Shown here: piece by piece, positions 45,948-50,106 of the stretch
Layout of the letters: every line of letters begins with the position of its first letter
Position numbering within the stretch: the first letter of the stretch is position 1
Origin: Escherichia coli
GTDB taxonomy: Bacteria > Pseudomonadota > Gammaproteobacteria > Enterobacterales > Enterobacteriaceae
NCBI RefSeq assembly: GCF_003334405.1
Contig: NZ_QOWM01000013.1
Strand: one strand, 5' to 3'
DNA: 64,000 nucleotides
Program-made: the position numbers and the translations under genes
The notes under the pieces: generated by a model
What the model saw: only the letters and a program-made list of their open reading frames with translations
Told to the model about the DNA's origin: nothing
Databases searched by the model: none

Positions 45948-48281
45948 TTGGCCAACTCATCCTCACGATATTCCGTTCTGACTGCCGCCCATTGGGGGCC
46001 CATGCTGGTTGAAACCGACGGCGAAACCGTGTTTAGCTCGCGTGGCGCGTTAGCCACAGGAATGGAAAACTCCTTGCAGAGCGCGGTTCGCGACCAGGTT
46101 CACAGCAATACGCGGGTACGATTTCCAATGGTGCGAAAAGGCTTTCTTGCGTCACCGGAAAACCCGCAAGGCATTCGTGGGCAGGATGAATTTGTTCGCG
46201 TGAGTTGGGATGAGGCGCTGGATCTTATTCACCAACAACATAAACGCATTCGTGAGGCTTATGGTCCGGCATCGATTTTTGCTGGTTCCTACGGCTGGCG
46301 TTCAAACGGCGTGCTGCATAAGGCCTCGACATTATTACAACGCTATATGGCGCTGGCAGGCGGTTATACCGGGCATCTGGGGGATTATTCGACCGGCGCG
46401 GCACAGGCGATCATGCCGTATGTCGTGGGTGGTAGTGAAGTTTATCAACAGCAGACCAGTTGGCCGCTGGTGCTGGAACATAGCGATGTCGTGGTGCTGT
46501 GGAGTGCTAACCCACTCAATACGCTGAAAATTGCGTGGAATGCATCCGATGAGCAGGGGCTTTCTTACTTTTCTGCACTGCGTGACAGCGGGAAAAAGCT
46601 GATCTGCATTGATCCAATGCGATCGGAAACCGTCGATTTCTTTGGCGATAAAATGGAGTGGGTGGCACCGCACATGGGCACCGATGTTGCGCTGATGCTG
46701 GGGATCGCCCATACGCTGGTGGAAAATGGTTGGCACGACGAAGCGTTTCTGGCGCGTTGCACCACAGGTTATGCCGTCTTCGCCTCTTATTTGCTGGGCG
46801 AGAGTGACGGAATAGCGAAAACCGCCGAATGGGCAGCAGAGATTTGTGGTGTTGGCGCAGCGAAAATCCGCGAGCTGGCGGCTATTTTCCACCAAAATAC
46901 CACCATGCTGATGGCAGGCTGGGGAATGCAGCGCCAACAGTTTGGTGAGCAAAAACACTGGATGATCGTCACGCTGGCAGCAATGTTGGGGCAAATCGGC
47001 ACACCCGGCGGCGGTTTTGGTCTTTCTTACCATTTTGCCAATGGTGGTAACCCCACGCGGCGTTCTGCGGTGCTCTCTTCCATGCAGGGCAGCTTGCCGG
47101 GTGGCTGCGATGCGGTGGATAAAATCCCTGTTGCCCGCATTGTTGAAGCACTGGAAAACCCTGGTGGCGCATATCAACACAACGGTATGAACCGACATTT
47201 CCCGGATATTCGTTTTATCTGGTGGGCGGGCGGTGCCAACTTTACTCATCATCAGGATACCAATCGCCTGATCCGTGCCTGGCAAAAACCGGAGCTGGTG
47301 GTGATCTCTGAATGCTTCTGGACGGCGGCGGCAAAACACGCGGATATCGTTCTGCCTGCGACTACCTCTTTTGAGCGTAATGATCTCACCATGACCGGTG
47401 ATTACAGTAATCAGCATCTGGTGCCGATGAAGCAAGTGGTGCCGCCACGCTATGAAGCGCGTAATGATTTTGATGTTTTTGCCGAGTTAAGTGAACGCTG
47501 GGAGAAGGGCGGTTATGCACGTTTTACGGAAGGAAAAAGTGAGCTGCAATGGCTGGAAACGTTTTATAACGTTGCCCGACAGCGCGGGGCAAGCCAGCAG
47601 GTTGAATTGCCGCCATTTGCTGAGTTCTGGCAAGCCAACCAGTTAATTGAGATGCCGGAAAACCCGGACAGCGAGCGGTTTATTCGCTTCGCTGATTTTT
47701 GCCGCGATCCGCTGGCGCATCCGTTAAAAACCGCCAGCGGCAAGATTGAAATCTTCTCACAGCGTATTGCCGATTACGGTTACCCGGATTGCCCTGGGCA
47801 TCCAATGTGGCTGGAGCCGGACGAATGGCAGGGCAATGCCGAACCAGAACAGTTGCAGGTACTTTCTGCCCATCCGGCGCACCGCCTGCACAGCCAGCTG
47901 AATTACAGTTCTCTGCGCGAATTGTACGCGGTGGCAAATCGTGAGCCTGTCACCATTCATCCTGACGATGCCCAGGAGCGCGGCATACAAGATGGCGATA
48001 CTGTTCGGTTGTGGAACGCACGCGGGCAAATTCTTGCCGGAGCGGTCATTAGCGAGGGAATTAAACCTGGCGTGATTTGCATTCACGAAGGGGCATGGCC
48101 GGATCTGGATTTAACCGCTGACGGTATTTGTAAAAACGGCGCAGTGAACGTGCTGACCAAAGATCTCCCCAGCTCGCGGCTGGGGAATGGCTGTGCGGGT
48201 AATACGGCGCTGGCATGGCTGGAAAAATACAACGGTCCGGAACTGACACTTACAGCGTTTGAACCACCGGCCAGCTCATAA
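45948..48281 (+). CDS. bisC: Biotin sulfoxide reductase (molybdopterin enzyme)
   Basis: 777-aa ORF recognised as BisC. Confidence 0.93.
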
Positions 48282-48690
48282 TCCATGTGGGTAGTTGGGT
48301 TTCATCCTGCCATGCGCAATCGACAATGTGAAAACCCTGTGCCTGGTAAAAATTTATCGCCGGTTGATTTTTTTGATAAACCTCCAGCATCAGGTGGGGA
48401 TGGCGCTGCTGCACATACTGCATCAGCGCCTTACCAATACCGCGCCTGACGGCCTTCGGTGCGACAAACATCGCTGCCAGAAATCGGCCTTCCATAATGC
48501 TGACAAAACCGAGAAGCTTACCGTCTTCTTCCCAGACCCAGTTTTGCGCGTTGGCAAGATAGGCATCCCGCACCAGCGGAATGCAGTCACGCCAGTAATT
48601 CGCTTTTATAAAGGGATGCCCCCAGGTTGTACTTTCCAGCCACAGTTCGAGGATCGCGGGGAGTTCTGAACGTTGCGCTTCCCGAATCAT
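48250..48690 (-). CDS. yiaC: GNAT-family N-acetyltransferase YiaC
   Basis: 146-aa ORF; 3' end overlaps the bisC 3' end by 32 bp on the opposite strand. Confidence 0.85.
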
Positions 48691-49250
48691 GGTTTATTTC
48701 CCGGATAGCAACAGCAGCCAACCACATGATCATTCACCAGCCCACATGCCTGCATAAAGGAGTAACAGATTGTGGTGCCGACAAACTTAAAACCACGTTT
48801 TTTCAGTGCCTTAGATAGGGCGTCGGAGGCGGACGTAGATGTGGGAATTTCGCTCAACGTTGTGGCTTGTGTCACCTGTGGCTGATGATTTACAAACGAC
48901 CAGACAAAGTCGACAAACGGTTCGCCGTTCTGTTCCATTTGCAGGTACGCCCGCGCATTACCAATAATTGCCTGAATTTTCCCTCGATGGCGGATAATCC
49001 CGGCGTCCTGTACCAGTCTTTCGACATCCTCTTCCTGCATTGCTGCGACCTTCACCGGATCGAACTGATGAAAGCAGGCGCGATAGTTTTCGCGTTTTTT
49101 GAGGACGGTGATCCACGATAATCCAGCCTGCTGCCCTTCAAGGCAGATCATTTCGAACAGTTTTTTACTGTCAGTTTCAGGCACGCCCCACTCATTATCA
49201 TGGTAGGCAATATAAAGCGGGTCCTGACTCACCCAGCCGCAACGTTCCAT
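48687..49250 (-). CDS. tag: 3-methyladenine DNA glycosylase I
   Basis: Start placed at ATG 49250 (MERCGWVSQDPLYIAYHDNEWGVP...), giving 187 aa; 4-bp overlap with the yiaC start. Confidence 0.93.
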   Translation of the reverse strand: MERCGWVSQDPLYIAYHDNEWGVPETDSKKLFEMICLEGQQAGLSWITVLKKRENYRACFHQFDPVKVAAMQEEDVERLVQDAGIIRHRGKIQAIIGNARAYLQMEQNGEPFVDFVWSFVNHQPQVTQATTLSEIPTSTSASDALSKALKKRGFKFVGTTICYSFMQACGLVNDHVVGCCCYPGNKP

Positions 49251-49407
49251 ACTTTCCCTCGCTATGTACCCGATCGTAAAAATTTCAGCCGCTTTTCTTG
49301 ACGCATCGGTGAAAAAGTCAATATTTAATACAGGGCTACTATGCCCGATATCCTTCATACAATGACAATAATATTGCCGAATTCGGCTCTTCTCTGGAGT
49401 CGTGTTA

Positions 49408-50106
49408 ATGATCATAAAAAAAAGCGGTGGTCGCTGGCAGCTAAGCCTGCTGGCGAGCGTGGTAATCAGTGCCTTTTTTCTCAACACAGCTTACGCCTGG
49501 CAACAAGAATATATCGTTGATACGCAACCCGGACTTTCCACAGAGCGTTACACCTGGGATAGTGATCATCAACCTGATTACAACGATATTTTGTCGCAAC
49601 GTATTCAAAGTAGCCAAAGGGCGCTGGGACTGGAAGTCAATCTGGCGGAAGAAACCCCTGTGGATGTGACCAGCAGTATGAGTATGGGCTGGAATTTTCC
49701 TTTATATGAACAGGTTACAACCGGCCCGGTCGCGGCATTACATTACGATGGCACAACCACCTCGATGTATAACGAGTTTGGCGACAGTACTACCACGCTG
49801 ACCGATCCGTTATGGCATGCCAGCGTGAGTACCTTAGGCTGGCGTGTTGACTCCCGGCTTGGCGATCTCCGACCCTGGGCGCAAATCAGCTATAACCAGC
49901 AATTTGGCGAGAATATCTGGAAGGCGCAATCAGGCCTGAGCCGGATGACGGCGACAAACCAGAACGGCAACTGGCTGGATGTCACCGTAGGCGCTGATAT
50001 GTTGCTCAATCAAAATATTGCCGCCTATGCCGCGCTAACTCAGGCAGAAAATACCACTAATAATAGCGACTATCTGTATACGATGGGGGTTAGCGCCAGA
50101 TTTTAA
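49408..50106 (+). CDS. yhjY: Uncharacterised signal-peptide protein YhjY (autotransporter beta-domain-like)
   Basis: Start placed at ATG 49408 (MIIKKSGGRWQLSLLASVVISAFFLNTAYA...); C-terminal ...MGVSARF beta-barrel-like terminus. Start position is uncertain. Confidence 0.75.
   Translation: MIIKKSGGRWQLSLLASVVISAFFLNTAYAWQQEYIVDTQPGLSTERYTWDSDHQPDYNDILSQRIQSSQRALGLEVNLAEETPVDVTSSMSMGWNFPLYEQVTTGPVAALHYDGTTTSMYNEFGDSTTTLTDPLWHASVSTLGWRVDSRLGDLRPWAQISYNQQFGENIWKAQSGLSRMTATNQNGNWLDVTVGADMLLNQNIAAYAALTQAENTTNNSDYLYTMGVSARF

Follow-up and report, generated by a model that had tools for sequence, protein, structure and literature searches.

Convergent overlaps, excludons and bidirectional terminators

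Gene pairs on opposite strands whose coding ends run into one another have been catalogued in E. coli, where 58 convergent overlaps were counted, with phase (123:132) the commonest among those longer than 4 bp (Lillo & Krakauer 2007, PMC2174442). The pair described here, bisC and yiaC, resembles these catalogued pairs in being made of bona fide opposite-strand genes that overlap by less than 50 bp in phase (123:132), and here as there any terminator must sit within the coding sequence of the partner (PMC2174442). At 32 bp the bisC-yiaC overlap exceeds the 4-bp stop/stop overlaps that are so common, but nothing essential otherwise sets it apart from the convergent pairs; both proteins are of a length typical for their families, and neither shows an obvious 3' extension through loss of a stop codon.

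Convergent excludons, exemplified in E. coli by mscL-arfA (PMC10070815; PMC12288877), are likewise adjacent convergent genes whose transcripts overlap at their 3' ends. The yiaC-bisC pair is itself one of the 165 convergent excludons that ExcludonFinder detects in half or more of 58 MG1655 RNA-seq samples (PMC12288877). For validated excludons reciprocal regulation has been shown, whereas yiaC-bisC is on record by transcript overlap only, and that overlap is forced by the coding sequences, not by long 3' UTRs. A further relative is the bidirectional intrinsic terminator, known from SEnd-seq (Ju et al. 2019, as cited in PMC7815308), in which two converging units also have to end within a tiny space; the same problem is treated, in terms of RNA polymerase collisions and bidirectional termination, in a preprint (10.1101/2022.10.23.513370).

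A 32-bp overlap of two coding ends

The window, by which we mean the whole 64,000-nucleotide stretch of E. coli DNA that was analysed, contains the following genes and shared segment:

45948..48281, plus strand: bisC, biotin sulfoxide reductase, 777 aa, TTG start (open reading frame list; same ends in RefSeq)
48250..48690, minus strand: yiaC, GNAT peptidyl-lysine N-acetyltransferase, 146 aa (open reading frame list; RefSeq)
48250..48281, both strands: dual-coding overlap, 32 bp, phase bisC 1,2,3 : yiaC 1,3,2
48687..49250, minus strand: tag, DNA-3-methyladenine glycosylase I (RefSeq annotation transferred, including that of MG1655)

The two genes lie on opposite strands, bisC ending at 48281 (+) and yiaC at 48250 (-), and the open reading frame list and direct translation agree that they have the 32 bp from 48250 to 48281 in common (TTACAGCGTTTGAACCACCGGCCAGCTCATAA). 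This DNA encodes (L)TAFEPPASS-stop of BisC on the plus strand and (I)MSWPVVQTL-stop of YiaC on the minus strand, and for each gene it takes in nine complete sense codons, two of the three bases of another and the stop codon. An earlier note on this DNA had held that the two coding ends overlap in their last 10 codons; the wording is right provided that the stop codon is counted, and the overlap itself is borne out by the open reading frames, by translation and by RefSeq in four strains. In three of these, S17-1, MFDS1019527 and Rb-23, RefSeq/PGAP annotates the identical 32-bp overlap, and the fourth, K-12 MG1655, carries the same overlap in its RefSeq entry (yiaC 3713652..3714092 +, bisC 3714061..3716394 -). 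The 1001-bp stretch round the overlap matches several complete E. coli genomes at 100% identity and occurs in 5423 of the 5426.

That each partner is a genuine protein-coding gene is attested by homology, a structural model, published YiaC activity and RefSeq. Two papers (PMC6199490, PMC9636275) describe YiaC as a lysine acetyltransferase and lactylase, and BisC is the biotin sulfoxide reductase of the MG1655 annotation. Of the two ends of bisC the 5' one is the less certain, because gene-caller lengths differ between genera: the call is 777 aa with a TTG start here and in RefSeq, against 759 aa for Enterobacter ludwigii and 804 aa for Kosakonia. At its own 5' end yiaC is preceded by tag, the upstream gene of a tag-yiaC pair, with the tag stop and the yiaC start overlapping by 4 bp (ATGA) at 48687-48690.

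Conservation of both stops

The comparison of C-termini with orthologues that the earlier note had proposed covered 11 lineages in 8 genera. Three are Escherichia (the E. coli window, E. albertii and E. whittamii); the others are Salmonella, Citrobacter amalonaticus, C. rodentium, Enterobacter ludwigii, Pseudescherichia, Lelliottia, Metakosakonia and Kosakonia. A contig scan with a single YiaC protein yielded five Escherichia loci, and the other genera were reached by protein search and exact-protein look-ups. Every locus collected runs yhjY, tag, yiaC, bisC. In all but those of Kosakonia and Metakosakonia the next gene is yiaD; in these two, nothing resembling yiaD is called at that place.

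Neither gene was found to end earlier than called, and the overlap stands. The bisC stop occupies the same position relative to yiaC in all 11 lineages. The yiaC stop does so in 8 of 11 and falls 6 nt (two codons) later in Lelliottia, Kosakonia and Metakosakonia, giving an overlap of 32 bp in 8/11 lineages and of 38 bp in 3/11, with no indels in the overlap region across the 11 lineages. Both protein tails are kept as well, that of BisC as LTLTAF(E/D)PPA(S/N)(S/P) and that of YiaC as HPTWIMSW(Q/P/R)(A/V)(D/V/G)QT(P/L/R/Q), each followed directly by the stop.

Comparison with more distant homologues gives the same picture. The C-terminal 159 aa of BisC reach the end of the solved DMSO and TMAO reductases in alignment; against R. 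sphaeroides DMSO reductase 1EU1, whose chain closes with VTVTVFDTPK, the BisC tail is aligned to residue 778 of 780, and it aligns similarly with TMAO reductases. For YiaC, 22 orthologues align end to end, and the 146-aa protein is matched in length by its 147-aa paralogue YjaB (2KCW), with PTWIMSW of YiaC aligned to PYPLLNL of YjaB. The AlphaFold model of YiaC has a mean pLDDT of 94.6 and places the last beta-strand at residues 133-140, with residues 141-146 as coil and a mean pLDDT of 61 for the last residue block. Because the stops are conserved and the tails match the ends of homologues, neither bisC nor yiaC is, on the evidence of these alignments, over-called, and both proteins keep family-typical ends. 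By the same comparison the overlap dates back at least to the divergence of the eight sampled enterobacterial genera, from Escherichia to Kosakonia.

Possible overlap-free outgroups were sought with the C-terminal 300 aa of Kosakonia BisC as query. The matches were mostly gene fragments, and the three that were followed (L018, L019 and L020), at 65-75% identity, proved to be frameshift-ridden assemblies of the same syntenic locus and not true outgroups. In these the yiaD-bisC-yiaC-tag locus is split into many short frameshifted open reading frames, with one fused tag-yiaC call of 324 aa; the breakage looks like uncorrected long-read indel error and not biology. The resulting pieces are present in protein databases as 'BisC' fragments of 65-75% identity.

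The other end of yiaC behaves differently between genera. In E. coli, tag is 187 aa long and overlaps yiaC by 4 bp; it is called at 193 aa with a 23-bp overlap in Salmonella, C. amalonaticus, Enterobacter, Lelliottia, Pseudescherichia and Metakosakonia, and at 192 aa with a 20-bp overlap in Kosakonia, while at the C. rodentium locus no tag gene is called at the tag position. From these calls it follows that yiaC overlaps a neighbour at both ends and that the length of the tag-side overlap changed on the Escherichia lineage.

Dual-coding constraint

Because the phase is bisC 1,2,3 : yiaC 1,3,2, the wobble base of each gene lies opposite the second codon base of its partner. The consequences can be read from the third codon positions of the 11 lineages. 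For yiaC, the mean pairwise difference at third positions is 0.036 inside the overlap vs 0.511 outside it, a value as low as that observed occurring in 0 of 100,000 resamples; for bisC the corresponding figures are 0.242 inside and 0.515 outside (resampling p ~1.5e-4). Within the species the contrast is also visible: 5404 of 5422 complete E. coli genomes (99.7%) carry the overlap 32-mer unchanged, as against 4525/5421 (83%) for the adjacent 32-mer on the bisC side and 1302/5422 (24%) for that on the yiaC side.

The bisC wobble bases that do vary alter the YiaC tail, which shows L/P/R/Q at residue 146, V/D/G at 143, V/A at 142 and P/Q/R at 141, and those that are invariant are the ones opposite YiaC W140, M138, Q144 and T145. 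From these variable and invariant sites it follows that both proteins constrain the shared DNA. The two ends are also apposed in a particular way: the flexible six-residue tail of YiaC faces the conserved TAF(E/D)PP of BisC, and the last three residues and stop of BisC face the end of the final YiaC beta-strand (IMSW). The substitution pattern shows a slow-evolving segment held by double purifying selection, with most of the amino-acid change taken up by the YiaC tail. With this pattern and with both stops kept in 11 lineages, the overlap is more than chance.

On the E. coli lineage, four substitutions fall within 16 nt (48254-48269), all at bisC third positions (ACG to ACA, GAT to GAA, CCG to CCA and CCT to CCG). 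Their effect was to turn the genus-wide YiaC tail QADQTP into PVVQTL, BisC changing only from D to E; E. albertii has the intermediate YiaC tail PADQTP. Just outside the overlap, the window has T at 48286, a synonymous yiaC site (Thr135, ACA). Over the 32-mer 48282-48313 most E. coli genomes differ somewhere, with 1302/5422 exact; nearly the same number, 1309, reach 99% identity or more across the 1001-bp stretch.

Transcription and termination

Since intergenic DNA is absent, there is no terminator between bisC and yiaC. The claim that such a terminator would have no room, and the claim that read-through of either gene would be antisense to its partner, both follow directly from the geometry; the excludon list agrees with the second, as does a Rho termination region that lies antisense within bisC. 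Two minus-strand features bear on where transcripts of the yiaC strand might end:

48165..48187, minus strand: candidate terminator-like hairpin from the consensus scan, 9 pairs followed by the tail ATCTTTGGTC
about 47998, minus strand: Rho termination region of the yiaC-strand transcript (PMC7815308; coordinate converted from MG1655)

The Rho region is listed on the + strand of MG1655 at 3714344, where it is classed as antisense to bisC with a Rho score of 7.3 and a significance of 5.5e-14 (Adams et al. 2021, PMC7815308 Supplementary file 2). It comes from a single bicyclomycin experiment and lies some 250 nt past the yiaC stop, inside bisC, a position that is approximate because the scoring windows span 800 nt. 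The stretch leading up to it is richer in C than in G with a modest skew, the C/G ratios on the minus strand being 1.17, 1.36, 1.40, 1.89 and 1.42 in five 50-nt bins from 48249 down to 48000. No Term-seq 3' ends are listed in MG1655 3713500-3714399; for 3714000-3714299 the listing covers three growth conditions (PMC7815308). For the yiaC strand, then, antisense read-through is on record, and Rho is the most likely agent of its termination.

Searches for other regulatory elements were negative within their scope. Rfam gave no match in 47000..49600 at an E-value of 1 or less. A promoter scan of 47600..49000 found no sigma-70-like sites and hence no sign of an internal antisense promoter. Consensus scanning combined with folding found no strong intrinsic terminator; the consensus scan returned 4 terminator-like sites vs 2.1 expected by chance, and together with a repeat search it placed neither a terminator-like site nor an inverted repeat in the overlap itself.

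The hairpin at 48165..48187 lies 63 nt downstream of the yiaC stop, within the bisC codons for LPSSRLGN. It matches the terminator consensus, with 6 of its 9 pairs G-C and a 5-nt loop, and folds at -20.3 kcal/mol (z = -2.9 vs shuffled); its tail has 5 T in 10 bases without a long run, which makes a weak U tract. Three of its pairs join two wobble positions, and in C. rodentium, Metakosakonia and Kosakonia one of these wobble-wobble pairs has switched from C-G to G-C. Of the nine pairs, four fail to form in 2-4 of the 11 taxa, leaving 88.9% of cells paired overall, and covariation is weak, with a single pair showing double changes and a score reached by 12 of 500 shuffles.

On the other strand, the segment just past the bisC stop (48282..48345, +) was rejected as a terminator, since shuffled sequence folds just as well (z = 0.13). 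A plus-strand hairpin at 48390..48450 was rejected as an intrinsic terminator: it folds well (z = -4.8) but is without a U tract. This segment lies within yiaC and folds at -31.9 kcal/mol as plus RNA and -27.3 kcal/mol as minus RNA, with core arms at 48402-48408 and 48424-48430; the arms GCGCTG / CAGCGC recur in most genera. The hairpin could simply follow from the conserved A-L and Q-R codons, or it could form as a structure in yiaC mRNA or in bisC read-through RNA.

The locus thus differs from bidirectional intrinsic terminators. No hairpin flanked by A and U tracts lies between the stops, there being no intergenic DNA to hold one; the sole candidate hairpin sits inside bisC, its U tract is weak and confined to one strand, no 3' end is mapped to it, and the published evidence for bisC-yiaC points to Rho.

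Weighing the explanations

We conclude, with a probability of roughly 85%, that bisC and yiaC are two functional genes whose tail-to-tail overlap is genuine and old in evolution, and not an annotation error. On this reading neither transcript would be able to end between the genes. The tag-yiaC transcript would run antisense into bisC and be halted mainly by Rho within a few hundred nucleotides, and the bisC transcript would end somewhere inside antisense yiaC or tag. Because neither would end between the genes, the bisC and tag-yiaC mRNAs would have complementary 3' ends, the architecture of a convergent excludon. This complementarity is likeliest to be a tolerated by-product of compact gene packing.

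That one of the genes really ends earlier, or uses another frame, so that the DNA is not dual-coding, would sit well with the predicted disorder of the last six YiaC residues and their variability between genera. Against it stand the conservation of both stop positions over 11 lineages, the lack of any earlier in-frame stop in bisC or yiaC, the fit of the BisC end to solved homologues and of the YiaC length to YjaB, and the invariance of precisely those bisC wobble sites opposite YiaC W140, M138, Q144 and T145, which would be free to change were the DNA single-coding. Conserved stops, homologue ends and invariant wobble sites effectively refute an annotation artefact, and we regard it as scarcely credible. 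A different question is whether the hairpin at 48165..48187 is a selected intrinsic terminator of tag-yiaC, embedded in the bisC coding sequence. Its consensus match with 9 pairs and a 5-nt loop, its better-than-shuffled folding and the C-G to G-C switch at a wobble-wobble pair in three taxa all speak for this, as does the report that a minority of the genes in convergent overlaps of E. coli have predicted intrinsic terminators (Lillo & Krakauer, PMC2174442). However, its tail is poor in T, several taxa have a weaker helix (Pseudescherichia and Kosakonia above all), overall covariation is slight, no Term-seq 3' end is listed there (PMC7815308), the scan that found it returned 4 sites against a chance expectation of 2.1, and most of its conservation is explained by the highly conserved BisC motif LPSSRLGNG that it encodes. 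A selected terminator at this site is thus unlikely, if still worth bearing in mind, and the hairpin could add some intrinsic termination.

The remaining alternatives give the complementary 3' ends a regulatory role. The pair may be a working convergent excludon, in which high expression of one unit (tag-yiaC or bisC) lowers the other via the complementary 3' ends, by transcriptional interference and/or RNase III cleavage, and in which this coupling explains the conservation of the overlap. The listing of yiaC-bisC among MG1655 excludons (PMC12288877), the lower frequency with which such pairs as a class are co-expressed than other neighbouring pairs in a published single-cell analysis, the retention of the arrangement across 8 genera and the extension of the yiaC-strand transcript antisense into bisC before Rho stops it are all consistent with such a role. 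The ExcludonFinder criterion, however, is satisfied automatically by any overlapping coding pair once both genes are expressed; what has been published on co-expression consists of class-level statistics, and we found no report specific to yiaC-bisC of reciprocal expression or RNase III cleavage. Conservation, for its part, is fully explained by dual-coding constraint, since every indel or altered stop harms a protein end that is conserved, and there is no apparent functional link between biotin/methionine sulfoxide reduction and Tag or YiaC. We accordingly consider a working excludon rather improbable. Still more doubtful is the related proposal that the 32-38 bp overlap has been kept beyond the needs of the protein ends for the sake of antisense coupling of tag-yiaC and bisC, which may set alkylation repair and lysine acylation on one side against biotin/methionine sulfoxide repair on the other. 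Were it true, inducing one unit would lower the other via polymerase collision or RNase III cleavage, and the hairpin at 48165..48187 together with Rho would set the reach of the antisense transcript.

Significance

The overlap is already known, both from the reference annotation and from the excludon list, and it is an ordinary one. With the overlap in the K-12 reference annotation and the pair already listed as a transcriptional overlap, the significance of a genuine dual-coding end beyond book-keeping is small. What the present analysis adds is modest: a minimum age, family-typical ends for both proteins, and a clean dual-coding signature in which a disordered YiaC tail absorbs the changes made at bisC wobble positions. 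The pair could be used as a small textbook example of such constraint. It also carries a caution for engineering, in that a deletion of yiaC or a C-terminal tag on it changes the last residues of BisC, and vice versa.
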